From positions 456,547 through 520,546 of the forward strand of contig JBBDPM010000006.1 of NCBI GenBank assembly GCA_040876345.1: DNA of 64,000 nucleotides. The letters run 5' to 3'. Below are positions 4,023-58,869 of the stretch, one piece after another (the first letter of the stretch is position 1; each line of letters starts with the position of its first letter). The position numbers and the translations under genes were made by a program. The DNA is from Candidatus Woykebacteria bacterium (lineage in GTDB: Bacteria; Patescibacteriota; Microgenomatia; Woykebacterales; RBG-16-39-9b). The notes beneath the pieces are model-generated. The model was given only the letters and a program-made list of their open reading frames with translations, was not told the DNA's origin and made no database searches.

Positions 4023-4615
4023 ATTTTCCCCTTAAAATGGCTTGGTCCCTTCTTGGTAAGTAAATTTATCACCTTTTTTTGAATCTCATTTGGCTTTGCT
4101 ATTGAATCAAACTCAAAATTTGTGATTGTTCCGGCCGTCTGAATAAAAACATTCCCATAATCAAATATTAATTGGGCCACGCCTCCCCTAGTATGGGTGA
4201 CATCCTGAATATCATCTAAAGTCGTGCTGGAAATCTGTTTGTAAAAAAGATTGAAGAAATCAATATCAACTACTCTTTTAGTGGTGACTATATAAACATT
4301 AAAAAACCAAAGCAAAAATCTTTGAAAGGCGTAAGCGACGACAAAAAGATACCAAGACAGGGTGAGTACGAATTGGGTCGTCTGCGAAAGTGAAATATTT
4401 ATTGGCGAATTGTTCCCAAAAGGGATCAACTTCAGAGCTGGCGGGACTAAAATTAAGACAACTACTAAAATGGTCCACCCAACGTTTGTAAAAAAATGGG
4501 CTCTTTCAAAAACAATCACCTCTTCATCAAGGCTTTGGGTCTCAAAGTGTGGAAACTTGGTAGAGTTGGTCTGGTTCATCGGCTCTATTGTACCCGCCCG
4601 TAAAGGAAGCGTCAA
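4019..4615 (-). CDS. Membrane protein with bacterial PH (bPH_2/DUF304-like) domain
   Basis: Two TM helices followed by ...IVTTKRVVDIDF...GGVAQLIFDYGNVFIQTAG... Confidence 0.5.
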   Translation of the reverse strand: MTLPLRAGTIEPMNQTNSTKFPHFETQSLDEEVIVFERAHFFTNVGWTILVVVLILVPPALKLIPFGNNSPINISLSQTTQFVLTLSWYLFVVAYAFQRFLLWFFNVYIVTTKRVVDIDFFNLFYKQISSTTLDDIQDVTHTRGGVAQLIFDYGNVFIQTAGTITNFEFDSIAKPNEIQKKVINLLTKKGPSHFKGKI

Positions 4616-6372: not shown

Positions 6373-6461
6373 CAGTTATAGGTTATAATACTAGGATTCC
6401 ATGAATATTTCAAACTTAGGTTCCAAATACCGAACGGTCAGGGAAGAAATGTAATTACTAG

Positions 6462-7025: not shown

Positions 7026-7055
7026 TTGACAACCCGAAGCCAAACCGAGTACGAT
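7026..7055 (+). promoter_or_regulatory. Sigma70-like promoter for the pilin operon (TTGACA-N18-TACGAT)
   Basis: Perfect -35 hexamer, 18-nt spacer, TACGAT -10, 18 nt before the ATG at 7074. Confidence 0.4.
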
Positions 7056-7073
7056 TAATTAGCAATACTGTCC

Positions 7074-11481: not shown

Positions 11482-11556
11482 TTTGATTTTAACACAGGTT
11501 TAACTGAGTCAGACTCAGTTTGACTTTAGTAACTTACCCGTGTTAATTTGTAAAAA

Positions 11557-14951: not shown

Positions 14952-15011
14952 TTATCTATAATTCTATCCATTAACAAACTCAAACACAACTGTCTTAAAC
15001 ACGTGTTTTCG

Positions 15012-15039
15012 TTGACAATCGTACATTCTTAGATATAAG
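15012..15039 (+). promoter_or_regulatory. Sigma70-like promoter (TTGACA-N16-TATAAG) ending 10 nt before the ATG at 15050
   Basis: Consensus -35; 16-nt spacer; predicted leader of 0-4 nt. Confidence 0.45.
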
Positions 15040-15049
15040 ATTAAATCAA

Positions 15050-16885
15050 ATGTGCCTGCCCAGGAAATTTAAAATCTTTCTTCTTGTTACAACTCTCAGC
15101 CTTTTTCTAATCAGTACTCTGACTCCAGCCTTTGCATCTCACGATAAAACCCAAGGCGCACAACAATCCCAAAACACAATCGAGCCAATTCCAACTCCGA
15201 ACCCGGACGCCCCGCAAATTCAACCGATACCAAAACCAACCGCTGATCCCAAAATCCGTCAGGCTTTAGGCTGGGAAGATTTAAATCCAATTAGTTGGCC
15301 TGGAGCAGTCTATGACTTTCTTCGTGGGGCAACCGCCAAGGCAGTAAAAGGCGCTTTTTATGCCAGTCAAGATGCGGGATTTGAACAAATCAATAATTGT
15401 TCGGGGGCTGAATTAGTTGATAGCCAACGTCTTAATAACAACGATCCAGAGGACACTTGTATCGAGAAAAAAATAAACCGCGCTGCAATGGGAGTTAGTA
15501 ATTTAAGCGAAGTGCCGAACCCAGGATTACTTGACTACCTAGGTTATGTAGGGTCTCAATCTTTAACATTACCTGTTCCCATCAATTCAACTCAATACTT
15601 CGCCTCTATTAATCCTTTTAAAGAAGCTCGTGCTGCAGCAGGGGCTGAAGAGCTAGCAAACAACAATATACTACTAAGTATTTGGCGAACGTCCAGGAAT
15701 ATTGCTTTTGCTCTCTCAGCAGCGGTTTTAATGGTTGTTGGTTTTATGATCATGTTCCGTTGGAAGCTAGACCCACGCACCACAGTTACAATTCAAAATT
15801 CACTACCTAGAGTAGTGGTGGCCTTGATTCTCATAACTTTTAGCTTCGCGATCGCTGGTCTTATGATTGATTTTACGAGATTGATCACTGAGGTTGTAAC
15901 CTCACTTGTCGCAGTGCCGGGTGAGGCTCTTTTAGGCTTGTCTGCCATTGGTTTGCTAGTACTTGCAGGTGGAAGCCTTAGCCTTGCCACCGGTGGTCTA
16001 TTCGCGTTGTTTATTCTACTTCTTGGTTTAATTTTGTCCATCATGATTCTAATCGTGTTTATTGTGCTGATCTTTAAACTGCTCATGCGCTATATAACTT
16101 TTCTAATTCTCACTATTTTTGCGCCGTTCTTTTTCTTAGCCGGCGCTTTGCCAGGAGGTGAGGGGATTATTTTTAACTGGTTCAAGCGCCAAACAGCCGC
16201 CCTTTTGGCGGTACCGTTTACCGCTCTTTTTGTGAATCTTTCATTCGCAATCGGTTTTTCTGGTTTCACCGGGCAAGGAGATTTGAATTTTCCCTCTCCC
16301 TGGCCAGTTGTGGGTGGTTTCGCTAACACTGCAGTTGGGTTTGCCGTTCTTGGCCCCTTGATAGGAATTGGCTTATTCTTTTTCGCTACAAAAGTTCCGG
16401 ACATTGTTGATGAGGTCTTTGGAATCAAAGAGCTTGGGGCTAGAAAAGGAATCGGTCCTGGAATAATAGTTGGTGCGCCTATTGGCGGTCTCCAAGCTGC
16501 GGGTAATATATCAAGGGGTGTTGAAGGTGTGCAACGTGGTGTTAAGGTTGGGAAAGATGTGGCTGGGAATTTATCCAGAAGAGGGTGGGGGCCAGAACAA
16601 ACTCAAACTGAAGGCGGTAATGTGAGCATTAGTAACCAGCCAACTCCTGGTCCAGCCGCTAGAACAGCAAGGCAGTTAGCCAGGACAATTTTGCGGCCTT
16701 TTGCTCCAAAAGATATGAGTGGTAGAAAGCCCTGGCAGAATATTTCCATGTCGGAAGCAGATTTTGCAGAACGCCAGAGGAGAATACAAGAACAAATTAA
16801 GGCGGCTGCTGCGAGAGGCCGTCGTGGAGGCGGTCCGCCTCCAACCGAAGATCAAGACGAAAGAGGCCCCCTAGAAACACCCTAG
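15050..16885 (+). CDS. Polytopic membrane protein, VirB6/TrbL-like
   Basis: Signal peptide, extracytoplasmic domain of about 170 aa, at least 6 TM helices, Gly/Pro/Arg-rich hydrophilic C-terminus. Confidence 0.5.
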   Translation: MCLPRKFKIFLLVTTLSLFLISTLTPAFASHDKTQGAQQSQNTIEPIPTPNPDAPQIQPIPKPTADPKIRQALGWEDLNPISWPGAVYDFLRGATAKAVKGAFYASQDAGFEQINNCSGAELVDSQRLNNNDPEDTCIEKKINRAAMGVSNLSEVPNPGLLDYLGYVGSQSLTLPVPINSTQYFASINPFKEARAAAGAEELANNNILLSIWRTSRNIAFALSAAVLMVVGFMIMFRWKLDPRTTVTIQNSLPRVVVALILITFSFAIAGLMIDFTRLITEVVTSLVAVPGEALLGLSAIGLLVLAGGSLSLATGGLFALFILLLGLILSIMILIVFIVLIFKLLMRYITFLILTIFAPFFFLAGALPGGEGIIFNWFKRQTAALLAVPFTALFVNLSFAIGFSGFTGQGDLNFPSPWPVVGGFANTAVGFAVLGPLIGIGLFFFATKVPDIVDEVFGIKELGARKGIGPGIIVGAPIGGLQAAGNISRGVEGVQRGVKVGKDVAGNLSRRGWGPEQTQTEGGNVSISNQPTPGPAARTARQLARTILRPFAPKDMSGRKPWQNISMSEADFAERQRRIQEQIKAAAARGRRGGGPPPTEDQDERGPLETP

Positions 16886-19706: not shown

Positions 19707-20532
19707 CGTGTAAACCTCCTTGGGTTGCTAAACCCCTCAGGCAAGAGCGCTAGCGCAACAAGACTGAGAGGACGCTGTCCAGCATACGTTCGTGAGGGTT
19801 GAAAACCCCTGAGCGGTAATACCGCTTTGGAGCCTATTCCCTGTATCACTTGGTGTATGCTAGAGCAGCAGCAACACCAAGGGGAGTTTGAATGTTAGTT
19901 CTTGGATTTAGGATCTAGGATTTTAACTTAAATCCAACATCCTGAATCTAATATCCAAAATCCCCCTGGCGTTACCCCGCTGTCTAGCGGAAACCAAGGA
20001 AGTCTTTTTGTTCGTTTTACTTAATTTTTGGCGAATCGTAATGTTATAGGTTTCCAATTCGCCTTATATTCGCTTGTTAAGGTACTCACCATCGCAAGTT
20101 TCAACTTACGAAAATGGGCTCTGACTAACGACCTTTCGTTAACCAGAGCCCACCTTCGGGGACATATGCAAAAACTCACCATGGAGGTGGCTCTGGTATA
20201 ATTAATTTCTTAATTCTAAGTTCTGCTTCGTTCATTGTTCTTAATTAACTACTTATTACTAATAACTAAGTTGCTAGTTTAGCACAAATCAGCTTCAATG
20301 TCAATCCTATAGGATCCTCGGTGATTAAATTCATTCGCTTCGCTCAAGTAATTTAGGTACTCTTGGGTTCTGCGGGCGGGCGTAGATTCTAGGTTTCTAT
20401 TCGTGTACTTTACGATACAGTATGAGTCGGTTGATTTCGAATCTACTATCGACCATAATATACCCTACAGTTTAATCAAAGGTATTTTTCGGCGAAGAAT
20501 TCTCGAAGCCAGCTGAAGGTTAATCAAACAAT

Positions 20533-29112: not shown

Positions 29113-29224
29113 AATGTTCTTAAATTATTAGGGGTAGGGGGATTATATTATTGGGGTAGGGGTTCTTTGGTCAAGAAGGACGTTCTACTACTCTTCTGCA
29201 TCATTGATCTAAAAGATGCCAGTA

Positions 29225-29253
29225 TAAAGAAATTTGACATGAAAACTGCACTT
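29225..29253 (+). promoter_or_regulatory. Sigma70-like promoter of rpmH (TTGACA-N17-TATACT), 10 nt before the ATG
   Basis: Perfect -35, 17-nt spacer; predicts a near-leaderless rpmH transcript. Confidence 0.5.
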
Positions 29254-29263
29254 CTCTATACTA

Positions 29264-29410
29264 CCCGATACTATGCCAAAAAGAACATATCAGCCAAAAA
29301 AGGTAAAAAGAAAAAGGAAACACGGGTTCCTTTCTCGTATGAGTAAAAAGATAAGCCAAAGAGTAATAAAAAGAAGAAGAGCTAAAGGTAGAAAAAAAAT
29401 TTCAGTCTAA
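29264..29410 (+). CDS. rpmH: 50S ribosomal protein L34
   Basis: [45 protein letters not shown] (hand-translated; too short for the ORF track); rpmH-rnpA-yidC-jag synteny. Confidence 0.8.
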
Positions 29411-31456: not shown

Positions 31457-33127
31457 ATGAGCACTTCTGCCCAAGATAGAATCTTTCCATTCAAATTTAC
31501 TAATAGTCAAACTAAAACTGCTTTAGTGGCCGGTGGGGCAGGTATAGTTGGCTCTAACATCTGCGAGAGTTTATTGTCCCTAGGGTTTTCGGTAATTTGT
31601 ATTGATAACCTGACTTCCGGGGAAAAAAGTAATGTCGAAAGCCTAGTGAACTCCCCGAATTTTTCATTCGTTAAGGCTGATATTAATTCCCCCAGTTTTA
31701 TTCTCCCCGAAGAAGTAAAAGTAGATGTTATTTTCCATGCCGCCGGCCTTGAAGAGTTTTCAATAAACAAAAACCTCTCTTTAGAGACACTATTGGTTAA
31801 CTCTTTAGGAACCAGGGTACTTTTAGAAATTGCAAAAGTAAAAAAAGCAAAATTTATCTTTGTTTCTACAGCGGAGCTTTATAGCGGTGCTTTTTCCTCC
31901 ACATCTCTGAAGTACTATTTTGGAAAAAATCCTCAAGATGAGTCAACCTTTACTCACAATGAAGCAAAACGCTTTGCAGAAGCTTTAGTTTTCGAATACT
32001 TCAAACAATACAATTTAGACGCTTTAATTGTGAGAATAAAAGACGTTTATGGTCCAAAGATGAACCTGCAAGCTGAAGGGGTAGTTAATAAGCTTATAAA
32101 AGAGACGATTGAAGAAAGAAAACTAACCATTGCGGGTGATGGGCTAAAGACAATTAACCCCACGTTTATCTCAGACGTGACAAGAGGAATAATTAAGGCA
32201 ACCCAGGAGGGGTCTTCAGGAGAAATATATAATCTTGTTAGCCCTGAGAAAATCACTGTTGCCAATTTTGCTCAGACTCTGAATCAGGTAGTAGGGGGAC
32301 TACAGATTTTTTACAAAAAAGGCCTTGAGGATATGGAGATACCTTACCACCAGCTTGATTTGAGTACAACCATCGAAAAGCTGGGTTGGAGACCGATCGT
32401 TAATTTAGCCGATGGAGTCTACGAAACTTTAAACTATTTTACAAAAAAAGCGGCTCCGGAGCAGAAGAAGGCCCCGATACCCATTTTCTCCCCCGCGGAG
32501 GCAGTATCAAAAAAAGCGGAAAAACCCAGAATAGCCTCATCCCTCCACCGCCACTTAAGATTAATAATCTTTATTAGTTCTTTAGCGCTTATCTTAATTA
32601 CAGTGGTGTACCCAGGCTCCGCTCTACTTATTAATACTTTCCAGGGAAATTCGAATTTTGAGAAGTCCATTGATGGCCTTGAGGCCGATGATATAGCGTC
32701 TAGTAAAACTCAAGCTGAAAAATCGGAAAAATATTATCAGAAGGCCTCACAAAACTTAAATAATTTGAAGTGGCTGTTACAAATTTTTATTGAAAGGGAG
32801 AAACTTTCTGCCTTATCTGATTTTTATTTCGGCGGGGAAAAAATTTCCGCCTCTGAAGTTTCAGCTGCCCAGGCTCTAACTACCTTGAGCCAAGAAGGAT
32901 CGAAAGAGGAAATAATTAGTGAAGCAGACTTAAATAAGTTCCTTTTAGATATAAAAGCCCTAGCGCAGGAAGCCGAGATTAAACTTGAAATGGGCTCAAC
33001 CAAGCTGGACTCTATCGAAACTAGTAAACTCCCAAATTCCCTTTTGGATGATGCGTCAAAGTTTAGGGAAGGCAAAAGCATTTTGGAAGATATTATTAAG
33101 CAGCTTTTAAACTCGACAAACACTTGA
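31457..33127 (+). CDS. NAD-dependent epimerase/dehydratase (SDR-e) fused to a C-terminal TM segment and coiled-coil extension
   Basis: Rossmann GGAGIVGSNICESLL; catalytic YSGAF…K region; then RLIIFISSLALILITVV TM helix and a 180-aa coiled coil. Confidence 0.6.
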   Translation: MSTSAQDRIFPFKFTNSQTKTALVAGGAGIVGSNICESLLSLGFSVICIDNLTSGEKSNVESLVNSPNFSFVKADINSPSFILPEEVKVDVIFHAAGLEEFSINKNLSLETLLVNSLGTRVLLEIAKVKKAKFIFVSTAELYSGAFSSTSLKYYFGKNPQDESTFTHNEAKRFAEALVFEYFKQYNLDALIVRIKDVYGPKMNLQAEGVVNKLIKETIEERKLTIAGDGLKTINPTFISDVTRGIIKATQEGSSGEIYNLVSPEKITVANFAQTLNQVVGGLQIFYKKGLEDMEIPYHQLDLSTTIEKLGWRPIVNLADGVYETLNYFTKKAAPEQKKAPIPIFSPAEAVSKKAEKPRIASSLHRHLRLIIFISSLALILITVVYPGSALLINTFQGNSNFEKSIDGLEADDIASSKTQAEKSEKYYQKASQNLNNLKWLLQIFIEREKLSALSDFYFGGEKISASEVSAAQALTTLSQEGSKEEIISEADLNKFLLDIKALAQEAEIKLEMGSTKLDSIETSKLPNSLLDDASKFREGKSILEDIIKQLLNSTNT

Positions 33128-33152
33128 GCAGCGTGCTATACTTAATTCAACT

Positions 33153-33530: not shown

Positions 33531-33630
33531 ATATCCGGATGGATGTGAGTGTCTACTCGAATAGATTCTAGTTTTTAATTCGAGAAAGTTAAAGTACTTA
33601 CCTTGACTAGGCCAGTATAATAGTTAATCT

Positions 33631-34335: not shown

Positions 34336-34442
34336 AGTTATTACGTCTGTAGGAAGGTAATATTATGAAGGAAACCGAGGACTTTAGCCTTCGTAGTTGT
34401 TCATACCCTGAGTAATGCGCAAAAGATGGACCCGCCAGAAAT

Positions 34443-36293
34443 ATGTATTACTGGTACAATATCTCTATGTATCAAGATGGAACAACCCACCGCGAAGGGC
34501 GCATTAATCGTGAAATTCATAAACTGTTTTGGCAAGCAAATTTTCAAGATAAAAATAGACTAATCTTGACCTACTTAACTCGTATACCCGCAGTTGCTGC
34601 CTACAATGTTTTTATTCCCTTAGTTAGCGCATACGGGATCCAAGCCATAATAGATAAAAGGTTAGATCAGGTTAATCATTACGCCTTACTGGTTATACTG
34701 TTATCCATTTTTTACTGTCTATGCTGGTCTATAGGTGGTATAGCTATAAGTAAACAAGCTATTAAGGGTTCTAAATACATTCAAAATAGAATATTCGCAA
34801 ACTTTTTGGCCAAGGATTACGACTTTTATACCAACGCCTACTTTGGCTCGTTAGGAGCCCAGGCCGCCCGTATACGAGATGCATTTAACATGTACGGTGA
34901 GATAGTAACATTGGCTCTACCCAAGCAGATCACTATTGTTGTTGCAGGAGTAGCAATTATCGCCTTTCAATCGCTCGCACTGGCAGTGGCGACGGTAGTG
35001 GCGATGCTATTTGTGTTGAGTTACACCGTGCTGACCAGCTCATGGCGGCTGCAATTCAGACGCAAAACAAGCGAGGCTAGCAGTGAAGTGGCTGGTAGTA
35101 TCGGCGACTCATTAACGCATGGCCCAACTGTAAAAAGCTTTGCCATGGAAGATTATGAAATGCAACGTCTGCAAAAGCCGCTTGCTCGTTGGGCAAAAGA
35201 ACAGTACAGAACCTGGGTCACTTTTGTGCCGGCCGATACTGGGCGGATGCTGTTAGCAGCCATCACTACCGCCGTTCTATTAATTTATTCGTCAAGATTG
35301 TACCAGCAAGGCGCAATATCTATAACTATAGTCATTTTAATTCAGCTATACGTCATTAGGCTCGTAGCCAGCACTCTTGATATAGCAGAGATGATAAAGC
35401 GCTATGAAGAAGCAATGGGCAACGCCTATGAGCCTGTTAAAACCATGGGCATACTTGTAAATATTAAAGATCCTGAAAGCCCCAAAAAATTGGCGCAAAG
35501 CACCACACATACATTAGAGTTGCAAGAAGTTTCGTACCAATACCCAGAGGCGGCAAAGTCACAATATGCAGTAAGTAACTTCTCGCAAAAGATTAAGCCA
35601 GGCGAAAAAGTCGGTCTTGTTGGTTATTCCGGAAGTGGCAAGACTACTCTCACGAAGTTGCTACTGCGCTTTATGGATGTGACAACAGGTAAGATTATTA
35701 TTGATGGCTTGGATATTAAGGAGATAGGGCAAAAAGATTTGCGTAACGTGATCTCTTATGTGCCACAAGAGCCTTTACTGTTTCACCGCTCTATCGCCGA
35801 AAATATTGCTTATGCCAACCCCAATGCACCCAAAAGTATCGTTATCAAAGCCGCCAAAATGGCCTATGTAGATGAATTTGCAGAAGAGTTACCAAAAGGT
35901 TACGACACGCTTGTGGGAGAAAGAGGTGTAAAGCTCTCCGGTGGGCAGCGCCAACGGGTAGCCATAGCCCGTGCATTACTAAAAGACAGCCCAATACTAG
36001 TTTTAGATGAAGCTACTAGTGCTTTAGATAGTAAGAGTGAAAAATATATACAGGACGGCCTGCGCCAGCTAATGAAAAACCGAACCTCGTTAGTAATTGC
36101 CCATCGACTCAGTACTATCCAACGAATGGATAGAATAGTAGTTATGGACAAGGGTCGTGTTGTGCAAAATGGTACACACCAACAATTGCTTGAAGAAGAG
36201 AATGGAATTTACTCCAAGTTGTGGAGTCATCAAAGCGGTGGCTACATAGGTGTTGTATCTAGCTTCGCATCAGAAGAAAGTGAAGCTTTATAA
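34443..36293 (+). CDS. ABC transporter, fused permease/ATPase (exporter type)
   Basis: 6 TM; Walker A GYSGSGKTT, signature LSGGQRQRVAIARAL, Walker B ILVLDEATSALD. Confidence 0.8.
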   Translation: MYYWYNISMYQDGTTHREGRINREIHKLFWQANFQDKNRLILTYLTRIPAVAAYNVFIPLVSAYGIQAIIDKRLDQVNHYALLVILLSIFYCLCWSIGGIAISKQAIKGSKYIQNRIFANFLAKDYDFYTNAYFGSLGAQAARIRDAFNMYGEIVTLALPKQITIVVAGVAIIAFQSLALAVATVVAMLFVLSYTVLTSSWRLQFRRKTSEASSEVAGSIGDSLTHGPTVKSFAMEDYEMQRLQKPLARWAKEQYRTWVTFVPADTGRMLLAAITTAVLLIYSSRLYQQGAISITIVILIQLYVIRLVASTLDIAEMIKRYEEAMGNAYEPVKTMGILVNIKDPESPKKLAQSTTHTLELQEVSYQYPEAAKSQYAVSNFSQKIKPGEKVGLVGYSGSGKTTLTKLLLRFMDVTTGKIIIDGLDIKEIGQKDLRNVISYVPQEPLLFHRSIAENIAYANPNAPKSIVIKAAKMAYVDEFAEELPKGYDTLVGERGVKLSGGQRQRVAIARALLKDSPILVLDEATSALDSKSEKYIQDGLRQLMKNRTSLVIAHRLSTIQRMDRIVVMDKGRVVQNGTHQQLLEEENGIYSKLWSHQSGGYIGVVSSFASEESEAL

Positions 36294-36460: not shown

Positions 36461-36489
36461 TTGACAAACCTCTTACTGTTTAGTAAAAT
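36461..36489 (+). promoter_or_regulatory. Sigma70-like promoter of vapB (TTGACA-N17-TAAAAT), 11 nt before the ATG
   Basis: Consensus -35; predicts a leaderless vapBC transcript. Confidence 0.45.
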
Positions 36490-36500: not shown

Positions 36501-36731
36501 ATGCCGCAAACAAAGATTAGCGATAAATACCAAGTAGTTATTCCAAAGGAGATAAGGAAAAAAGTTGGTTTAAAAGAAGGCCAAAGTCTTAACGTTTACG
36601 CGGCTGGAGACAAAATTGTACTTTCCCCTCAAAAAATTTGGCCAGATGGTTATATTGGTAGCCAGGAGGACATCTGGAAGGACGTAGATGTAGCTAAATA
36701 TCTTGCCGCCGAGAGAGATTCATGGCAGTGA
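36501..36731 (+). CDS. AbrB/MazE-fold antitoxin (VapB-like)
   Basis: SpoVT/AbrB-type swapped-hairpin sequence …YQVVIPKEIRKKVGLKEGQSLNVYAAGDKIVLSPQ…. Confidence 0.6.
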   Translation: MPQTKISDKYQVVIPKEIRKKVGLKEGQSLNVYAAGDKIVLSPQKIWPDGYIGSQEDIWKDVDVAKYLAAERDSWQ

Positions 36732-37165
36732 CAAGTGGTTTAGTCAGTGTGTTTTCTTCCCATAAGATAATTTTTATCGATACAAATGTTTTTATCTATG
36801 CTTTAGAGGATAATCCAAATTTCCCCGCAGCAAAAGAAATATTTCGCTTAATTAAAGAAAAACACAAGGAAACTTATACATCAGTAATTAGTCTACTTGA
36901 AGCTTCAGTTAAACTTTTTGACTTAGGACAAAAGGAAAAGATCGAAGAATATCTGAATTTTATTAGTGGTCATGGTCTAATACAAATTTTAGATATAAAT
37001 AAATCGGTATCTATAAAAGCAGCCGAGATCCGATCAAAATATCGATTTAAGACCCCAGATTCGATACAGTTAGCAGCTGCAATTCTTGCCAGAGCCACCC
37101 TTTTTATTACTGCAGACAGAGATTTTGTAAAGAAGGCCGAAAATTTAGAAATATTAGTTATTTAG
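36722..37165 (+). CDS. PIN-domain ribonuclease toxin (VapC-like)
   Basis: IFIDTNVFIYALED… (first acidic PIN residue), conserved D later; overlaps the antitoxin by 10 bp. Confidence 0.65.
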   Translation: MAVTSGLVSVFSSHKIIFIDTNVFIYALEDNPNFPAAKEIFRLIKEKHKETYTSVISLLEASVKLFDLGQKEKIEEYLNFISGHGLIQILDINKSVSIKAAEIRSKYRFKTPDSIQLAAAILARATLFITADRDFVKKAENLEILVI

Positions 37166-41026: not shown

Positions 41027-41055
41027 TTGACAACACTAATTGGATGTTGTACAAT
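41027..41055 (+). promoter_or_regulatory. Strong sigma70-like promoter (TTGACA-N17-TACAAT) reading into the GC-rich mini-island
   Basis: Perfect -35, 17-nt spacer, 5/6 -10; no + strand housekeeping gene lies downstream. Confidence 0.5.
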
Positions 41056-41182
41056 ACGCGTTATCTTGAAGGAGGAGGTCGCGCGTGAGACAGCGCAACA
41101 AGGACCCGGCCTAAGGGCTCAAATTGGGCTCCTGAAACAAGCTCTCGAGGGTCGAGATCTGTAACCGAAAAAGGAGGCCGTT

Positions 41183-41317
41183 ATGGACCGGCGCGACACA
41201 GGCTCCCGTAAAGGCAAGTTCAGCTCCAAGCCCTTCGCCACGCTCTCACCGGACGACGCGATCAGCGCGGCCAGCCGCGGCGACCAGTACGGCGCTGTCG
41301 ACGACGACACCTGCTGA
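41183..41317 (+). CDS. Small GC-rich ORF (44 aa) with strong Shine-Dalgarno (AAAAAGGAGG-N5-ATG)
   Basis: Hand translation MDRRDTGSRKGKFSSKPFATLSPDDAISAASRGDQYGAVDDDTC*. Preceded by a 9-codon uORF (GTG at 41075, MRQRNKDPA*) with RBS GAAGGAGGAGG. Confidence 0.3.
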   Translation: MDRRDTGSRKGKFSSKPFATLSPDDAISAASRGDQYGAVDDDTC

Positions 41318-41385
41318 TCGACGCGGCCTACGGATCTTTGACGGCGAATCCGTAGGTTAGGATCCATCAACCATCGAAGCCGTCA

Positions 41386-42008: not shown

Positions 42009-42042
42009 ATGAATATGATAACATTAATGGGCAAAATTACCT

Positions 42043-42927
42043 ATGAAAAAAATTACTAAGGCGATAATTCCGGCAGCAGGTTATGGCACTAGGTTCTTGC
42101 CAGTGACCAAAGCAATGCCCAAAGAAATGCTCCCAATTGTGGACAAACCAATCATCCAATACGTAGTTGAAGAGGCAGTGGCTTCTGGCATCGAAGACGT
42201 CATTATTGTTACGGGTGGTAACAAAAGAGCCATTGAGGATCATTTTGACCGCTCCCAAGAACTGGAAGAATGGCTTCGGGATGCGGGCAAAAAAGATAAG
42301 TTAGAAGAGATAATAAAAATTGCTCACATGGCCAACTTTATCTATGTTCGCCAGAAGGGCCCTTATGGCAACGCCACTCCGGTGCTTTCAGCCAAGAATT
42401 TAGTTGAAGGGGAACCTTTTGCAGTGCTTTGGGGAGACGAGTTTATTTATTCGCAGCCACCACGCCTCAAACAACTCCTTGATACTTTTGAAAAATACCA
42501 AGCCAGTGTCATAAGCGGAGTGAAAATTGAGAAAAAGGAGGATCTTGCCAAATACGGTATCGCTGATCTTGAACATGTTGAAGGCAACGTTTACAAAATA
42601 AAGAAAATCATTGAAAAACCAGATCCTGATAAGGCACCATCAGACGTTGCCACCCACGGAGCCTATGTTTTTACCCCTTCAATTTTTGAGCATCTGGAGA
42701 CGCTTGTGCCGGGTAAAGGTGGAGAGCTTTGGCTACCGGAAGCAATTGACTCTCTTATCCAGAAAGAGCCTGTCTACACGGTTATCATTGAAGGTGGGCG
42801 CTACTACGATATTGGAAACAAGCTTGGTTTTATCGAAGCTAATATTGAGTTTGCCCTGAAGAACGATGAGCTCAAGAATGATTTGAGGCTCTTTCTCAAA
42901 AAGCTTGCTGAAAACTCCCCATCTTAA
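42043..42927 (+). CDS. galU: UTP--glucose-1-phosphate uridylyltransferase
   Basis: KAIIPAAGYGTRFLPVTKAMPKEMLPIVDKPIIQY. Confidence 0.85.
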   Translation: MKKITKAIIPAAGYGTRFLPVTKAMPKEMLPIVDKPIIQYVVEEAVASGIEDVIIVTGGNKRAIEDHFDRSQELEEWLRDAGKKDKLEEIIKIAHMANFIYVRQKGPYGNATPVLSAKNLVEGEPFAVLWGDEFIYSQPPRLKQLLDTFEKYQASVISGVKIEKKEDLAKYGIADLEHVEGNVYKIKKIIEKPDPDKAPSDVATHGAYVFTPSIFEHLETLVPGKGGELWLPEAIDSLIQKEPVYTVIIEGGRYYDIGNKLGFIEANIEFALKNDELKNDLRLFLKKLAENSPS

Positions 42928-42945
42928 TACAATGTACTTGCTGCC

Positions 42946-44332: not shown

Positions 44333-44360
44333 TTGACAAACTGCAATCCTCCGGTATAAT
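44333..44360 (+). promoter_or_regulatory. Consensus sigma70 promoter of groES-groEL (TTGACA-N16-TATAAT)
   Basis: Perfect hexamers; 106-nt leader with GGAGG RBS before groES. Confidence 0.55.
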
Positions 44361-44361
44361 T

Positions 44362-44388
44362 TTAGCGGACTTACAGTCCGAGTGCGAG
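44362..44388 (+). promoter_or_regulatory. Degenerate CIRCE-like element (TTAGCGGAC-N9-GAGTGCGAG)
   Basis: 13/18 match to TTAGCACTC-N9-GAGTGCTAA, placed right after the -10 as CIRCE usually is; the arms are not fully complementary. Confidence 0.25.
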
Positions 44389-44466
44389 TTTTAATTCGCA
44401 CCACCACTTAAGATTTCTGCCAACATTAAAATTTAAGAAACGTTAAGTATCTAATACGGAGGTAAT

Positions 44467-44766
44467 ATGGTAAAAACCAAAGTTAATATTAAACCACTTT
44501 CAGGTTACGCTCTAATAGAGCCACGAGAGGCGGAGGAAGTAACTGCTTCGGGTATTGTCCTTCCCGATACTGCTCAAGAAAAGCCAGCTCAAGGAAAAGT
44601 TTTGGCAGTTGGTGCCTCAACTTACGATCATGGTCGGGAAATAAAACCAGAGTTTAAGGTTGGAGACTTGGTTTTGTACAAAAAATGGGGCGGAGACGAG
44701 ATTAAAACTGAAGGCAAAGAGTTTAAATTAGTAAAATTTGAAGATGTAATGGCTATTATAGATTAA
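44467..44766 (+). CDS. groES: Co-chaperonin GroES
   Basis: 99 aa, IKPLSGYALIEP… mobile loop. Confidence 0.9.
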   Translation: MVKTKVNIKPLSGYALIEPREAEEVTASGIVLPDTAQEKPAQGKVLAVGASTYDHGREIKPEFKVGDLVLYKKWGGDEIKTEGKEFKLVKFEDVMAIID

Positions 44767-46443: not shown

Positions 46444-46471
46444 AGGGCCGATAAGGCCCTTCTCCTTTTTT
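46444..46471 (+). terminator. Rho-independent terminator after groEL
   Basis: AGGGCC-gataa-GGCCCT hairpin then TTCTCCTTTTTT. Confidence 0.6.
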
Positions 46472-46501
46472 CTGGATAAACAATTTGCTATAATTAACTG
46501 A

Positions 46502-47207: not shown

Positions 47208-47918
47208 ATGGCTAGGGCAAAGAAAACAGAAGTCAAAAAAGTAGGGTCTGCAACCAAAGCGCAAGGGTCAACCACCGCTAGGATCACACCCAGTAAAAGA
47301 AAACCTTTCAACCTCCAAGAACTTTCCAAAAACTTAAAGGAAAGGTTTCAACAGCACCAAGTCTTGTACTCAGTTTTAGCTACACTGTTAATAATTATTA
47401 TTTTACTTGGCGGCACTTTTTTCTGGAAAAAGGATCTTTTTCTGGCTGGATCAGTAAACGGCAAATTTATTACTAGCGTAGAATTTTACAACCGCCTTAT
47501 CAAAGCTTCAGGCACAGATGCTTTCGATTCAATAATTCAAGAAACGCTTATAAAACAAGAGGCAAAGAAGGCAGGCCACGCAGCTACGCAAGAGGAAATT
47601 GACGCTGAGATTTCTAAGATAGAAAAGCGGGTTGGCGGAAGGGAAGAGCTAGAAAAATTACTTGCCGGCAGTAACATGAATGTTGACGGTCTAAGAGAGC
47701 AGCTTGTGACTCAAGTTTTGGTCGAAAAAATCTTGGAAAAAGACATTCAGGTTTCTGACGCGGAAGTAGATAAATATATTAAGGAAAATAAAGATAGCGC
47801 AAAAGGTTTAAGCAAGGAAGAAGTAAAGGAGCAACTGCGCTCCCAAAAGCTAAATGAAAAATTCCCCTCTTGGTACGAAGAGATCAAAAAGAACGCTTCA
47901 ATTCAGAAATATTTTTGA
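47208..47918 (+). CDS. SurA N-terminal-domain chaperone-like protein (no PPIase domain), membrane-anchored
   Basis: TM then …NGKFITSVEFYNRLIKASG…QEEIDAEISKIEKRVGG…. Confidence 0.5.
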   Translation: MARAKKTEVKKVGSATKAQGSTTARITPSKRKPFNLQELSKNLKERFQQHQVLYSVLATLLIIIILLGGTFFWKKDLFLAGSVNGKFITSVEFYNRLIKASGTDAFDSIIQETLIKQEAKKAGHAATQEEIDAEISKIEKRVGGREELEKLLAGSNMNVDGLREQLVTQVLVEKILEKDIQVSDAEVDKYIKENKDSAKGLSKEEVKEQLRSQKLNEKFPSWYEEIKKNASIQKYF

Positions 47919-47951
47919 TAAGCCTTTCCTCAAAAACTTAAAATCAACTTC

Positions 47952-48790: not shown

Positions 48791-49627
48791 ATGGCACTTG
48801 ACTTATCCGCTGTCGGTAAGGAACTACCGCCAGCCACCTACGAGTACACTGATCGAGACGTCATTCTTTATGCCCTCGGCGTCGGCGCAACGGCTCGGGA
48901 TCTGGCGTTCGTTTACGAAAGGGGTGGCCTTCTGGCGTTGCCAACGTTCGGAGTCGTTCCGGCGTTTTCGGCGCTGACGTCGTTGGGTACGGTGCTGGAG
49001 TTCAACCCGCTATCACTGCTTCATGGTGAACAGCGCATCGAACTGCACGGGCAGATCCCGACTAGTGGGGTTCTGACTACGCAAGGCAGAATCACCGGCA
49101 TTTACGACAAGAGGAGAGGCGCTTTGGTGGTGATCGATGCCGACACGAAAGACGCAGAAGGTAGGACACTGGTCACGAATAGGTTCGGCGCGTTCATCCT
49201 TGGCGAGGGCGGTTTCGGGGGAGTGCGCGATCCGAACGCCTCAAAGCAACACGTCCTACCGACTCGTCCGCCTGACTACACGATGGCGTACAAGACTTCA
49301 CAGAACCAGGCAGTACTCTACCGACTCTCCGGCGACCTTAACCCCTTGCACATCGACCCAGGGTTCGCGAAGCTCGCGGGGTTCGAGCGGCCGATTCTGC
49401 ATGGCCTCTGCACCTTCGGTCACGTGGGGTGCGCCGTGCTGCATGCCTGCTGCGGCGGAGACCCATCGCGACTCAAGATCCTTGAAGCGCGTTTCTCCGG
49501 CGAGGTTTACCCGGGCGAGACGATCATTACGGACATCTGGCAGGATGGTTCGACAGCGATTTTGCAAGCGCGAACGGAGGAGCGTGACAAAGTCGTTATT
49601 TCGAACGCCGCCGCGACGATCGCCTAA
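48791..49627 (+). CDS. MaoC-like (R)-specific enoyl-CoA hydratase/dehydratase, double hot-dog (GC-rich)
   Basis: YRLSGDLNPLHIDPGFAKLAGFERPILHG hydratase-2 motif; about 62% GC; GAGGAGG RBS. Confidence 0.7.
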   Translation: MALDLSAVGKELPPATYEYTDRDVILYALGVGATARDLAFVYERGGLLALPTFGVVPAFSALTSLGTVLEFNPLSLLHGEQRIELHGQIPTSGVLTTQGRITGIYDKRRGALVVIDADTKDAEGRTLVTNRFGAFILGEGGFGGVRDPNASKQHVLPTRPPDYTMAYKTSQNQAVLYRLSGDLNPLHIDPGFAKLAGFERPILHGLCTFGHVGCAVLHACCGGDPSRLKILEARFSGEVYPGETIITDIWQDGSTAILQARTEERDKVVISNAAATIA

Positions 49628-49754
49628 TGCTGTTCACAAAATCCCACGGGGATTACCAGAGTCACAGACTCTTGAAAAAGGAGGTGATCGGCTGAATAGC
49701 ACATAACAGTACCAAACGACTCGAGCGAGACTAGCATGAATAGGAGGCTCACCA

Positions 49755-50717: not shown

Positions 50718-50746
50718 TTGACAAACCTAAATTAAAGATTTACAAT
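50718..50746 (+). promoter_or_regulatory. Sigma70-like promoter (TTGACA-N17-TACAAT), 9 nt before ATG 50756
   Basis: Same architecture as the promoter at 41027. Confidence 0.45.
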
Positions 50747-50755: not shown

Positions 50756-51085
50756 ATGAAATTTAACCATGCACAATTTATTAACTCAATAACTGGTGTT
50801 TCGACTGCGGCAGGTGTGCTTTTACTTATGTATAAAAGATACGATTTAGCCGCCCTCGCCTTTACTTTGCTCTCAGCCGGTGCTGCCGGTGTCCTTTGGG
50901 AGAGATACACAAGTCGATCCGGCCACCCTTTAAGTTTAAAGGCGTTAACAACAAAGCGATTACCGGAAAGGAATGGTGAAATTGACTTTGCTCTAACTCA
51001 CTTGCCTTACCCCACACTCGCAGCTATTAGTTTTTTTCTAGCCAAGAGAAAGGCCAGGAGTAATCATGACCTCCAAGCCCTCTAA
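50756..51085 (+). CDS. Small membrane protein
   Basis: Two TM helices. Start set at the Met after the promoter, not the 50708 start of the ORF track. Confidence 0.4.
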   Translation: MKFNHAQFINSITGVSTAAGVLLLMYKRYDLAALAFTLLSAGAAGVLWERYTSRSGHPLSLKALTTKRLPERNGEIDFALTHLPYPTLAAISFFLAKRKARSNHDLQAL

Positions 51086-51662: not shown

Positions 51663-51703
51663 GTTTTTAAAATTTTCACGATCTTGTGTTAAACTAAGCC
51701 TTC

Positions 51704-53423: not shown

Positions 53424-53479
53424 AAATTAATTTTAGCAAAGAAAAAAAGTACAGTCCAGTAAAATAAAAAACCACAAAA

Positions 53480-55141
53480 TTGACACGTCCAAAAAGAACT
53501 GCTAATCTTGAATTACAGATGGAGCCTCAAACTGCCCAACCCCAAGCTCCCCAAAAAGCCGAGAACAAAAAAGTATTACTATTGTTATTAGCTTTATTGG
53601 GATTATTAGTAATTGGGTTTCTAGGATACCTTATTTTCGCAAGGCAAAGTGAAAAAGAGCCCACCTCAAGAGTGGTGACTGGACTTTCTAGAGATTCAAT
53701 AGTAATTGGCCAAAGAAGCGCTGTTACTGGTGTATTTCCCGATTCGGCCCCAGAATTCTACAGTGTTGTTTTCAACAATCATATTTTTGAAGGCCTTGGT
53801 AGAATTGTAGACGGTGAGCCAAAACCGGCTCTTGCCACAAGCTGGACAAACCAAGATAAGAACACTTGGCGGTTTATGATTAGAAAAGGAGTAAAATTTC
53901 ACAACGGTAATACCTTAACCGCAGATGATGTTAAATTTAGCATTGACGAAGCTCTCAAAAACAATTGGCCCAACGCTTTTAACTTAGGTACCGTAAAATC
54001 TGTCACGGTCGTTGATGATTTCACAGTTGATATAAAGACAAATGGACCAGATCCTGTCCTTCTTAACCGGCTTGTTTACGCTTTTGTAGTTTCCGAGAAA
54101 CAATTCAAGGAGAAGGGTGATAAACCTGCAGTTGGCACAGGCCCCTATAAATTCGTGGGCCTTAATAAAAGTGAAGCTATCCTTGAGTCTAATGGAGATT
54201 ATTACTTAGGCCAGCCAAAGATAAAGAAAGTAACCTGGAAGTTTTTGCCAAATGCTTCAACCGACGAAAAGTTAGTAGAGGCAGTGAAGAATGGCGAGGT
54301 GGATATTATAGCTATAAGAGGTAAAAACCTGGGGAACGCTGTTGGCAGTGGATATCAAGTGAAAACCTTGGCAGATCCATTCATCACCTTCCTTTGGTTA
54401 GATACTGCAAGAGACAAAAGCCCTTACATCAGTAAAAGCCCAAGCCCCCTTAAAAACAAATTGGTTCGTGAGGCGATGTACAAAGTGGTGGATATAAACA
54501 GGATAATCGAAAGCTCGGAGATTGCGGGAGTAGCCGCCTCGCAATTTGTTACTGAAGATATTTTTGGTTACAATCCGGACGTTAAAAGGCCCGAACCAAA
54601 TGTAGAAGAAGCTAAGAATCTTATGAAACAAGCAGGTTTACCAGATGGTTTTAGCTTGACCGTTGATCTTGAAGACGCGGCAGAGCCTGTTTTTGAGCCA
54701 ATAATAAAGGAGCTTGCGAAAATAAATGTTAAGGTTAAGCTGAATCCAATTAGTTTTGATGATCTAGGTAAAAAAGTATTCGAGACTAAAGACACTTCAG
54801 CCTTTATTTTGGAGTATGGAGCGGAAACGTTTGACGCAGGAGAAATATTCTTAAACGTGTTACATACCCCCGGAGGTGGTTTTGGCGGTGATAATTTTCT
54901 CAAGTTTAACAATCTAGAGATTGATAAATTAGCGGAGGAAATTGCCACAACTTTTGAGTCGAGATCAAGAAGAGAAAAACTGCAAGAGACAACAAAGAAA
55001 GCGGTGGTAGAGCTCCCGATGATCCCGCTTTTCAGCACAAAGTTTACTTATATTTTCCGTGACAATTTTGATTGGACTCCCACTTCCTTTGGAGCAATTT
55101 ACGTTAATGAAATTTCCGGAAGAGAAATTGTTACAGAGTAG
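53480..55141 (+). CDS. ABC transporter substrate-binding protein, family 5 (peptide/nickel type), membrane-anchored
   Basis: N-terminal TM; size and motifs (…LATSWTNQDKNTWRFMIRKGVKFHNG…) of SBP_bac_5. Confidence 0.7.
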   Translation: MTRPKRTANLELQMEPQTAQPQAPQKAENKKVLLLLLALLGLLVIGFLGYLIFARQSEKEPTSRVVTGLSRDSIVIGQRSAVTGVFPDSAPEFYSVVFNNHIFEGLGRIVDGEPKPALATSWTNQDKNTWRFMIRKGVKFHNGNTLTADDVKFSIDEALKNNWPNAFNLGTVKSVTVVDDFTVDIKTNGPDPVLLNRLVYAFVVSEKQFKEKGDKPAVGTGPYKFVGLNKSEAILESNGDYYLGQPKIKKVTWKFLPNASTDEKLVEAVKNGEVDIIAIRGKNLGNAVGSGYQVKTLADPFITFLWLDTARDKSPYISKSPSPLKNKLVREAMYKVVDINRIIESSEIAGVAASQFVTEDIFGYNPDVKRPEPNVEEAKNLMKQAGLPDGFSLTVDLEDAAEPVFEPIIKELAKINVKVKLNPISFDDLGKKVFETKDTSAFILEYGAETFDAGEIFLNVLHTPGGGFGGDNFLKFNNLEIDKLAEEIATTFESRSRREKLQETTKKAVVELPMIPLFSTKFTYIFRDNFDWTPTSFGAIYVNEISGREIVTE

Positions 55142-55184
55142 CCTATTCTGAATTCCTCATTTCTTTGTGCTAAACTTAGTTTAA

Positions 55185-57679: not shown

Positions 57680-58810
57680 CTAGAGCTTTTTAGCAAACTG
57701 GGAGGCGATCCAGCCGGATTTTGCGGAGGAGAGCTCTATCTGATACCAATAGTTTTTCTCAGAAAGCAGCTCGTAAATCTCTCCCGGATTTATTTTTTGA
57801 ATAATCGAAAAACTTGTTCCTGGACCGGCTCTTACATTTAGGAAGGCGTTTGGAGTATCAAGAATGGTGACTTTTTTTGATGAGCTTTTGGCCGAAGTAG
57901 ATTTCGAAATATTGCTCCAAACTTTTAAAGCTGGAGAGCTTAACTTGCCAGGGTCAGTTCCTAAATACCCTACTTTAACTTCCTTTTTCTTTTCCCATCC
58001 GTTCTCTAAAGTGTAGGTTTTACCACTGATGTCGATAAGCAGATCAAACTTTTCTGGAACGTCCTTACTAGTTTTTTGAAAATGCCAAATGCCTTCTGCC
58101 CATGTCTGTGCATCGCCGCTGAGATCTGAGTTTGATGTTGATAGATCAAATAAAGTAAAGTTCTTATTTTCGTCTGCCTTCTTGACCTGTTGTGGGTATG
58201 GGTCTAGTGCTAGCGATACCCAGGCGACTAATCCGTAGCCCTCCTCAATGTTTATCCCTAACCCTCTTGTTAAATATCCTTTTTTCGACACAGTAAGAGT
58301 ATAAATCCCAGAGTCGGCTATCTGTGATAGAGGTGAGTTACCAAGTGTTTTTCCGTTCAAGGAAATTTCAGCATCTCCTGGTGAGGTCACGATAGATATC
58401 CCCCCACCTTCCCGCAAACCCAAAATCTCTCCGGCGGAAAACTTTTCGGTAGGACCAAATTCATAGTTTACGATAGTAATCGCGCCGGGGTTCAAATCAA
58501 CCTTTTGGCTAAACTCGGCGGCTTTGACCTCCTCGTTAGCTAAATTATCTCCTAAGGTGGCAACATTGGCTTTCATGCTTAAACTGTATCCTCCCACCTT
58601 CAAATTCTTCTGTTGGAGTGGGGTTTTGCCAATTAAATTACCACCCAGAAAGACTTCGGCTTCATAGTTAGATTCAATTTTAAGGAATCCTTGTGGCGGT
58701 TTAAGAGCCGGTAATAAATATTGGTAAGCGATAAAGCCAAGAGCTAAGAGCAATATTAAACTTAGAAGTTGCAAAAATTTCCCCATGCTAGAAGAGAAAG
58801 AATAACACAA
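57680..58810 (-). CDS. Membrane-anchored protein with PEGA-like domains and a C-terminal bacterial SH3 (SH3_3) domain
   Basis: TM; …YEAEVFLGGNLIGKTPL… and …AEISLNGKTLGNSPL… (PEGA); …LNVRAGPGTSFSIIQKINPGEIYELLSEKNYWYQIEL… (SH3b). Confidence 0.55.
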   Translation of the reverse strand: MCYSFSSSMGKFLQLLSLILLLALGFIAYQYLLPALKPPQGFLKIESNYEAEVFLGGNLIGKTPLQQKNLKVGGYSLSMKANVATLGDNLANEEVKAAEFSQKVDLNPGAITIVNYEFGPTEKFSAGEILGLREGGGISIVTSPGDAEISLNGKTLGNSPLSQIADSGIYTLTVSKKGYLTRGLGINIEEGYGLVAWVSLALDPYPQQVKKADENKNFTLFDLSTSNSDLSGDAQTWAEGIWHFQKTSKDVPEKFDLLIDISGKTYTLENGWEKKKEVKVGYLGTDPGKLSSPALKVWSNISKSTSAKSSSKKVTILDTPNAFLNVRAGPGTSFSIIQKINPGEIYELLSEKNYWYQIELSSAKSGWIASQFAKKL

Positions 58811-58869
58811 GAGTCTGACTACGTAAACTCACCTTGTTAAAATTATTCAAAGCTGATAGATTTTAGTTA

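Follow-up and report, generated by a model that had tools for sequence, protein, structure and literature searches.

Sigma-70-type promoters abutting start codons predict leaderless or near-leaderless mRNAs for first genes in a Candidatus Woykebacteria genome

Background

Several strong promoters in a 64-kb stretch of a Candidatus Woykebacteria genome, here called the window in its full length (43% GC), end so close to the start codon of the following gene that the question arises whether their transcripts have any room for a Shine-Dalgarno (SD) sequence. An initial annotation had described four such promoters, located upstream of rpmH, a 'VirB6-like' gene, vapB and a small membrane gene, and had proposed that they give rise to leaderless mRNAs. 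The window contains the dnaA-dnaN-recF and rpmH-rnpA-yidC genes, groES/EL, vapBC and the tmRNA gene with smpB, along with a cluster resembling a type IV secretion system (T4SS) that encodes pilins, PrgI and TraC-like and VirB4-like proteins. The analysis described here makes it highly probable that these promoters are functional and would yield leaderless or near-leaderless mRNAs translated independently of SD sequences, in coexistence with SD-led genes.

Promoters adjoining four start codons

The distance d counts the nucleotides lying between the -10 box and the start codon. Promoters were modelled as TTGACA-N16-18-TATAAT and scored out of 12, with 100 dinucleotide-preserving shuffles as the null. 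All four arrangements of promoter and start codon were present in the sequence and scored 10-11/12 in the promoter scan; the respective features are as follows.

29234..29262, plus strand: rpmH promoter, TTGACA at 29234-29239, 17-nt spacer, TATACT at 29257-29262, d=10
29273..29410, plus strand: rpmH (ribosomal protein L34, 45 aa), first gene of rpmH-rnpA-yidC, without an upstream SD sequence
15012..15041, plus strand: promoter of a 611-aa membrane protein of the T4SS cluster, TTGACA at 15012-15017, 18-nt spacer, TAAGAT at 15036-15041, d=8
15050..16885, plus strand: 611-aa polytopic membrane protein ('VirB6-like'), in which hydropathy indicates a signal peptide and about eight hydrophobic segments
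36461..36489, plus strand: vapB promoter, TTGACA at 36461-36466, 17-nt spacer, TAAAAT at 36484-36489, d=11 before ATG 36501
36501..37165, plus strand: vapB (MazE/AbrB-type antitoxin) and the overlapping PIN toxin gene, assigned by Pfam
50718..50746, plus strand: promoter of a 109-aa open reading frame (ORF), TTGACA at 50718-50723, 17-nt spacer, TACAAT at 50741-50746, d=9
50756..51085, plus strand: 109-aa ORF without family assignment, with the same start called in the NCBI and Logan assemblies

The coordinates initially given for the vapB and 109-aa ORF promoters were exact. For rpmH, the relative distance was right and the motifs lie inside 29225-29266, but the positions 29253 and 29264 assigned to the end of the -10 box and to the ATG were about 9 nt too low. 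At the 611-aa gene, TTGACA and ATG 15050 are present as described, but the -10 box named there, TATAAG (15034-15039, spacer 16, d=10), lacks the conserved final T, and TAAGAT is the better choice. A Pfam search returned no match for the 611-aa protein, and 'VirB6-like' serves only as a label. In vapBC, the MazE_antitoxin model covers residues 3-45 and the PIN model residues 17-140.

In a set of 49 bacteria, the distance from the -10 box to the transcription start site (TSS) centres on 7 bp [PMC12641261]. The proposed start of transcription at, or within 0-4 nt of, the start codon is upheld in its near-leaderless sense, although the 7-nt rule predicts leaders of 2-5 nt for the four promoters (d=8-11). 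Over all candidates in the window the same rule predicts leaders of 0-6 nt, which are too short for an SD sequence, as had been suggested.

Frequency and position of the promoter motifs

Chance would explain the arrangement if the hexamers were fortuitous matches in intergenic DNA of about 40% GC, unrelated to the start codons. Lax matches conform to this expectation: at 9/12, the counts in the window equalled those in the shuffles (24 versus 26.8, 42 versus 34.6 and 39 versus 30.4), so weak matches carry no meaning, and in 67 upstream regions TANNNT by itself is found at a rate of about 1.9 per position. At a threshold of at least 11/12, however, the window contained 10 promoters in comparison with 1.04 +/- 0.93 in the shuffles (maximum 3), an enrichment of about 10-fold. 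Upstream of the 67 starts, which were defined by greedy non-overlapping ORFs with the first ATG, TANNNT formed a peak at d=7-12 with 27 hits in six positions, as opposed to the background of about 1.9 per position.

The extended -10 motif TGNTANNNT has 143 occurrences on both strands of the window. Eleven of them are located at d=6-12, where 0.52 were expected (Poisson p=1e-11), and only five at d=13-60 (48 positions), over which the interval d=6-12 is enriched about 15-fold. As these 11 cases exclude the four genes of the initial annotation, they constitute independent evidence. Among intergenic promoters scoring at least 10/12 (12 first genes), six are found at d=6-12, compared with 1.35 under uniform placement (p=5e-4). 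Hexamers spaced by 16-18 nt or TGn-extended -10 boxes, the features of sigma-70/sigma-A promoters, thus occur above chance, and the -10 motif lies about 6-12 nt before the starts of first genes, as in the 'TA-led' or group C genomes discussed below. Shuffles and intergenic placement alike put the motif positions outside chance expectation, and with the geometry conserved in orthologues, replicated in held-out genes and missing from a negative control (see below), the explanation by chance is effectively refuted.

Further first genes with the same arrangement

The initial annotation was right about its four genes but understated the scale of the phenomenon, since many further cases are present in the window. 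They are listed below, with -35 and -10 hexamers joined by the spacer length.

53480..53508, plus strand: TTGACA-17-TGCTAATCT, d=10 before ATG 53519 (SBP_bac_5 solute-binding protein)
53430..53458, minus strand: TGGACT-17-TGCTAAAAT, d=6 before ATG 53423 (DUF1684), divergent partner of 53480-53508
4587..4615, minus strand: TTGACG-17-TACAAT, d=7 before ATG 4579 (186 aa)
6385..6413, minus strand: TTGAAA-17-TATTAT, d=12 before ATG 6372 (SpoIID-domain protein)
11486..11549, both strands: back-to-back promoters in a divergent intergenic region of 81 nt
Within 11486..11549, minus strand: TGTTAAAAT, d=10 before ATG 11475 (PMT glycosyltransferase)
Within 11486..11549, plus strand: TTGACT-18-TGTTAATTT, d=7 before ATG 11557 (T4SS pilin)
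14961..14989, minus strand: TAGAAT, d=9 before ATG 14951 (M23 peptidase), divergent from the 15050 promoter
33113..33142, plus strand: TCGACA-18-TGCTATACT, d=10 before ATG 33153 (125 aa)
33593..33621, plus strand: perfect TATAAT, d=9 before ATG 33631 (ribosomal protein L25/Ctc)
34432..34460, plus strand: TGGTACAAT, d=6 before ATG 34467 (ABC transporter)
42015..42043, minus strand: TGTTATCAT, d=6 before ATG 42008 (NYN domain), in a divergent intergenic region of 34 nt
46466..46494, plus strand: TGCTATAAT (perfect extended -10), d=7 before ATG 46502 (DUF4352)
47915..47944, plus strand: TTGATA-18-TAAAAT, d=7 before ATG 47952 (HAD hydrolase)
51667..51695, plus strand: TGTTAAACT, d=8 before ATG 51704 (sigma-70 family, ECF-like factor)
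55148..55176, plus strand: TGCTAAACT, d=11 before ATG 55188 (histidine kinase)
58799..58862, both strands: divergent promoter pair in an intergenic region of 83 nt
Within 58799..58862, minus strand: TGTTATTCT, d=12 before ATG 58786 (PEGA/SH3 protein)
Within 58799..58862, plus strand: TGATAGATT, d=7 before ATG 58870
42905..42933, plus strand: TACAAT, d=12 before ATG 42946 (solute-binding protein), a weaker case with a gap of 18 nt to the upstream gene

Together with the four genes described above, the list comprises 22 candidates, 20 of which are first genes selected by rule, the other two having been added by manual reading. The distance d is 6 in three of them, 7 in five, 8 in two, 9 in three, 10 in four, 11 in two and 12 in three, and the start codon is ATG in all 22. 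A -35 box matching at least 5/6 positions at 16-18 nt is present in 10/22 candidates and a TGn extension in 12/22, mostly those with a poor -35 box, a compensation commonly seen in genuine sigma-70 promoters. Five pairs of divergent starts are separated by 34-98 nt (42008/42043, 11475/11557, 58786/58870, 53423/53519 and 14951/15050). Gaps of this size provide no space for two leaders and fit promoters that abut both genes.

Some genes were considered and not included. The AATAAT found 11 nt before dnaA comes without a -35 box and is not retained in relatives; more plausible is a TTGACC-16/18 promoter located 32-34 nt upstream, and the gene was left unclassified. The -10 boxes of dnaN, 31457, 63249, 47208 and 39275 are located at 15-26 nt; these genes were not counted and possibly have short leaders devoid of SD sequences.

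Conservation, held-out genes and control genomes

The nearest DnaA relatives beyond the same organism are encoded on metagenome contigs and show 55-61% identity; those compared for rpmH have DnaA proteins 57-61% identical to that of the window. The rpmH promoters of these relatives (L081 to L084) are arranged as follows.

Window: TTGACA-17-TATACT, d=10
L081: TTGACA-18-TATACT, d=7
L082: TTGACA-17-TATACT, d=6, GTG start
L083/84: TTGACA-17-TATACT, d=9

The hexamers are identical in the four genomes, in which spacers and discriminators have diverged. Orthologues of the 611-aa gene, with protein identities of 39-43%, likewise retain TTGACA, the promoters reading TTGACA-17-TAAAAT-7-ATG in L085, the same in L086 (ATG 9959) and TTGACA-18-TATACT-11-ATG in L087, where the number before the start codon is d. 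The hexamers are thus conserved relative to the flanking intergenic sequence. The same abutting geometry was found in orthologues of the PMT gene, two pilin genes, the 125-aa gene and the 186-aa gene: the orthologous PMT/pilin intergenic regions have it at L086 5563 (d=9, GTG), L085 5680 (d=7) and L086 5638 (d=7), the promoter of the 125-aa gene recurs in L083 with d=11, and the 186-aa gene of L087 is preceded by TTGACC-17-TACAAT-6-ATG. The conserved trait is the abutment of promoter and start codon, not the exact distance, and such conservation of the geometry across relatives suggests a working arrangement.

A separate observation concerns the first pilin gene of the T4SS cluster, which has a conserved TTGACA-18-TACGAT/TAAAAT promoter (window 7026-7074). 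Its ATG (7074 in the window) follows the -10 box by 18 nt in the window and L087 (5040-5090) but by 7 nt in L085 (640-685) and L086 (980-1024), so the spacing is not invariant; a spacing of 18 nt would give a leader of about 12 nt without an SD sequence.

A further 18 kb of the same contig, adjoining the window and unused in forming the hypothesis, served as a held-out set. Five of its 13 first genes display the geometry and six others are SD-led. The five cases are dnaG (TATAAT-7-ATG), tatD (TGGTATAAT-6-GTG), rmuC (TTTACA-17-TGTTAAGAT-10-ATG) and a pair of small genes with d=6. Three cases with d=6 among the held-out genes and the relatives start with GTG.

Comparison of DnaA with GTDB genomes yielded a best identity of 40%, mostly to Firmicutes. 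Matches this distant are of no use for promoter conservation and were employed as a negative control. Among 468 genes from 74 non-Patescibacteria dnaA loci processed with the same pipeline, the region at 6-12 nt was depleted: the ratio of hits at d=6-12 to hits at d=13-60 was 0.49 for TANNNT and 0.86 for TGNTANNNT, compared with 2.2 and 25 in the window. In 20 or more of the non-Patescibacteria loci, the -10 box of rpmH is found 35-45 nt before the start, together with an SD sequence of the GGAGG type.

Shine-Dalgarno use in first and internal genes

The first gene of a transcription unit (TU) was defined as a gene that is divergent from its upstream neighbour or follows a gap of at least 25 nt. 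A -10 box was counted when TAnnnT matched at least 4/6 positions at d=6-12, a preceding TGn being scored as one match. By these definitions, 20/42 first genes and 4/22 internal genes carry the box (Fisher p=0.03), whereas an SD core (GGAG, GAGG or AGGA) precedes 5/42 first genes and 8/22 internal genes (p=0.046). Only groEL has both, by chance.

These counts bear on the possibility that the TA-rich box is a translation signal of a non-SD type, A/U-rich, S1-dependent or provided by an unstructured region, as in Bacteroidetes (GeneMarkS-2 group B), and that it resides on longer transcripts that begin further upstream or read through from a preceding gene. AT-rich biases at -20 to -10 can indeed be read both ways [PMC5397173], several candidates follow a same-strand gene by only 18-46 nt, and the spacing is looser than in Mycobacterium. 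A ribosomal signal should, however, also precede internal genes, which are depleted of the box and use SD sequences of the GGAG type; the box thus does not precede all genes, as a non-SD ribosome-binding motif of the group B (Bacteroidetes-like) kind would. TTGACA-like hexamers at 16-18 nt and TGn extensions are recognition features of RNA polymerase and not of the ribosome, and many cases are situated in divergent regions of 34-98 nt, where an upstream promoter or read-through is impossible. A translation signal of this kind is therefore very unlikely, and the motif behaves as a promoter, with SD-type ribosome-binding sites (RBSs) being used by internal genes and by first genes with leaders. 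A search of Rfam revealed no family accounting for any promoter-proximal region.

SD-led and promoter-abutting genes consequently occur side by side in the window, as had been proposed. The clearest contrast is provided by groES:

44333..44766, plus strand: groES with a 12/12 promoter (TTGACA-16-TATAAT, 44333-44360), a leader of about 100 nt, GGAGG and ATG 44467

The groEL gene directly downstream has the SD sequence AGGAGG, which is also found at genes 19706, 48791 and 49755. Among the genes initially cited as having long leaders with GGAGG, groES and the GC-rich genes with AGGAGG are apt examples, but gene 21155 is an operon-internal SD-led gene and not one with a long leader.

Two GC-rich segments deserve separate mention, namely 48791-50645, encoding a MaoC-type hydratase and a short-chain dehydrogenase, and 16938-19706, encoding a 922-aa protein. 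Their GC content is 50-55% as opposed to a background of about 41%, and all of these genes have a strong AGGAGG. One Logan contig from this organism (L090) starts within the dehydrogenase gene, so the hydratase/dehydrogenase pair possibly belongs to an island that is variable or was acquired; by contrast, relatives have conserved the 922-aa gene.

Validity of the start codons

If translation began at a downstream codon with an RBS of its own, the promoters could be real and the mRNAs nevertheless ordinarily leadered. Gene callers do differ in places, giving 553 or 540 aa for the SBP_bac_5 protein, 364 or 368 aa for the PEGA protein and a 'VirB6-like' protein shorter by 14 codons in L086, and the 109-aa ORF contains in-frame GTG/ATG codons 20-24 codons downstream. 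No SD core precedes these alternative starts, however, and the Pfam alignments begin close to the N-termini of the proteins: at residue 3 in L34 (3-45), 3 in MazE, 5 in HAD, 6 in L25 and 9 in NYN. The N-termini following the promoter-proximal ATG are conserved in L34 (MPKRTYQP) and in the signal peptide of the 611-aa protein (M(S/C)LP), and the starts in the NCBI annotation agree for dnaA, rpmH, the 611-aa ORF and the 109-aa ORF. Judged by these sequences, the promoter-proximal start codons are the true N-termini and initiation further downstream is highly improbable; the disagreements arise because callers ignore leaderless starts.

Three conflicts of this kind can be specified. For the SBP_bac_5 gene, one caller, on a Logan contig, starts at the TTG of the gene's own -35 box (53480 versus 53519). 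The ABC transporter gene has an upstream ATG, 34443, inside its predicted promoter, the position of which favours 34467. In the L086 'VirB6-like' gene, an in-frame ATG 14 codons downstream was selected (10001 versus 9959). All three are resolved by a leaderless model.

Proposed mode of initiation

According to the reading favoured here, housekeeping promoters of the sigma-70/sigma-A type would set the start of transcription at the start codon or 1-6 nt before it, the resulting mRNAs would be leaderless or near-leaderless and unable to carry an SD sequence, and their translation would proceed by initiation that depends on the 5' end and not on an SD sequence. In studied bacteria, such initiation involves the direct binding of 70S ribosomes, or of 30S subunits with initiation factor 2 (IF2) and fMet-tRNA, to a 5'-proximal AUG or GUG. 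The promoter-abutting design would be the default for approximately half of the first genes of TUs in this genome, with SD sequences of the GGAGG type and longer leaders serving the genes inside operons and a smaller part of the first genes (groES/EL, the GC-rich genes and the large T4SS-cluster protein).

Several observations weigh against this reading. As distinct from the motifs themselves, their enrichment and position, the restriction to first genes, the exclusion of SD sequences, the conservation and the N-termini, all of which the sequences show, the TSS positions and the mode of ribosome recruitment are deduced from DNA motifs. The distribution of d is broad and fairly flat (6-12 nt), in contrast to the sharp 6-8 nt reported for Mycobacterium, and the canonical distance of 7 nt places the TSS on the start codon in only about 40% of cases. 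Many transcripts are thus predicted to be near-leaderless, beginning 2-6 nt before the AUG, and not to have a strictly 5'-terminal AUG. In E. coli, leaderless translation is reduced by extra 5' nucleotides. The Fisher tests on first and internal genes are only marginal owing to a sample of about 64 genes, and the short same-strand gaps at 33153, 47952 and 42946 also permit read-through from upstream. When the loci of the relatives were pooled, TANNNT was found 23 times versus 15.5 expected (1.4-fold, p=0.04), and the TGNTANNNT signal was not seen in six other Patescibacteria-labelled dnaA loci, which are few and small; generality beyond the clade is accordingly unproven. Exact-protein look-ups of rpmH and the 109-aa ORF for transcript-derived contigs returned genomic assemblies only.

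Leaders of 2-6 nt might also be poorly translated, expression of these genes then depending on longer transcripts or on special conditions such as stress ribosomes. With d=8-12 in 15/27 candidates (22 in the window and five held out), a non-zero leader is indeed predicted for many of them, and leaderless translation in E. coli requires a 5'-terminal AUG and is inefficient. The candidates nevertheless include the essential and highly expressed genes rpmH, L25 and dnaG, which have neither an alternative promoter nor an SD sequence, and we consider poor translation a very unlikely account of the set. By the convention of at most 5 nt in mycobacterial studies, leaders of 2-6 nt mostly count as leaderless. 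Default leaderless or near-leaderless initiation of first genes throughout a lineage of the candidate phyla radiation (CPR), with strong -35 or extended -10 promoters like those of E. coli and Firmicutes and an unusually broad spacing of 6-12 nt, is put forward only tentatively.

Other promoters and leaders

The 922-aa gene of the T4SS cluster represents a different kind of upstream region (19707-20310, minus strand). Its strong promoter, TTGACA at 20304 followed after 17 nt by TGCTAAACT, is separated by about 570 nt from AGGAGG and ATG 19706. All four relatives retain this promoter, and several downstream blocks are common to L081 9343-10157, L085 15371-16242 and L086 14813-15602. One block forms a long hairpin, CCAGAGCCACCTCC...GGTGGGCTCTGG, the 3' arm of which is also recognisable in L087. 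No matching family was found in Rfam for this region, a candidate for a long structured leader or a novel non-coding RNA at the opposite extreme to the leaderless genes.

Two G-rich 10-mers, GGGGTAGG(G), are located in the dnaA-rpmH intergenic region (29129-29160), where they form four G-runs (GGGG-TA-GGGGG-N11-GGGG-TA-GGGG), and a third is found just upstream of smpB (1898-1907, minus strand). With up to one mismatch, eight 10-mers of the GGGGTAGG(G) type are present versus 3.4 expected; they are possibly a regulator site or a G-quadruplex.

A GC-rich cassette of SD-led small ORFs is located between a tsaD-like gene and the NYN gene (41027-41360, plus strand). It starts with an 11/12 promoter (TTGACA-17-TACAAT), followed by GGAGGAGG and a GTG-initiated ORF of nine codons, then by AAGGAGG with a GC-rich ORF of 44 aa (41184-41318) and a hairpin at 41330-41358. 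An 11/12 TG-extended promoter (57413-57469, minus strand; TTGACA at 57469, 17 nt, TGATAAAAT) lies directly after tRNA-Cys. The transcription start predicted for it falls on a hairpin with a T-run (57434-57413) that resembles a terminator and precedes the M23-peptidase gene (ATG 57372), and the region is either a promoter within the tRNA terminator or an attenuator-like leader. In the 3' part of smpB, an 11/12 promoter, TTGACA-18-TATACT (1557-1586, minus strand), precedes the tmRNA gene (1375-1011) by about 175 nt and is likely the tmRNA (ssrA) promoter with a precursor leader.

Relation to known systems and significance

Isolated leaderless mRNAs of E. coli include the lambda cI mRNA transcribed from PRM, a sigma-70 promoter with +1 at the A of the AUG; translation is independent of an SD sequence and uses 70S ribosomes or IF2. 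The candidate genes resemble them in the placement of a sigma-70 promoter at the AUG, an arrangement that is rare in E. coli but here the commonest for first genes, including those of ribosomal proteins. Leaderless transcriptomes were reportedly mapped by experiment in Mycobacterium (Cortes, 2013) and Deinococcus deserti (de Groot, 2014). Those cases were established by differential RNA sequencing, proteomics and reporters, whereas ours is drawn from sequence and involves many predicted leaders of 2-6 nt.

In the literature, leaderless genes of bacteria are diagnosed by a -10 box near the start codon [PMC3160421; PMC6028130]. The window closely resembles the 'TA-led' genomes of Zheng et al. 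(2011) [PMC3160421] and group C of GeneMarkS-2 (Lomsadze et al. 2018) [PMC6028130], in which a Pribnow box about 10 nt (here 6-12 nt) before the first gene coexists with SD sequences at other genes. The predicted share of leaderless TUs, about 40-50%, is within or at the top of the 25-50% reported for these groups. The surveys behind these groups found the design mainly in Actinobacteria and Deinococcus-Thermus, and the window differs in its strong, Firmicutes-like TTGACA -35 boxes or TGn extensions, its GC content of 43% and a spacing broader than the 6-8 nt of M. tuberculosis. Mycobacterium tuberculosis and M. smegmatis (Shell 2015) [PMC4633059] and D. deserti also share with it the coexistence of SD-led mRNAs with many mRNAs that start at or near AUG/GUG, and a TANNNT adjoining the coding sequence. 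The order of dnaA and rpmH-rnpA-yidC and the sigma-A promoter before rpmH are those of the canonical rpmH-rnpA leaders of Firmicutes and other phyla, in which the -10 box is located at 35-45 nt and followed by GGAGG; in the clade studied here it is located at 6-10 nt without an SD sequence.

Mechanism and sequence signature are therefore already well known, and the new aspect is their occurrence in a lineage of Patescibacteria. A literature search within the searchable library uncovered incidental mentions only and no paper linking leaderless initiation or SD usage to Patescibacteria, CPR or Saccharibacteria. The only TSS set for CPR, obtained for TM7x by plain RNA sequencing, has an unusually variable distance from the -10 box to the TSS [PMC12641261]. 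If the tentative reading for the lineage is true, either the reduced ribosomes of these bacteria would start efficiently on AUGs located 0-6 nt from the 5' end, or their RNA polymerase would choose start sites that are further downstream of the -10 box, and more variable, than the canonical 7 nt.

CPR/Patescibacteria, almost all of which are uncultured, possess reduced ribosomes and only a small set of ribosome-biogenesis factors. The lineage-wide reading, if true, would be the first description of such a translation regime in CPR and would mean that gene starts in CPR metagenome-assembled genomes (MAGs) are systematically mis-called. Callers that assume an RBS misplace starts, and a leaderless model would improve the N-termini and signal peptides annotated in these MAGs. 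For the emerging genetics of Patescibacteria, TTGACA-17-TAnnnT or TGnTAnnnT abutting an ATG may offer ready-made expression signals. Translation of approximately half of the TUs without SD sequences would shape ideas on the translation machinery of CPR and on the antiquity of leaderless initiation.

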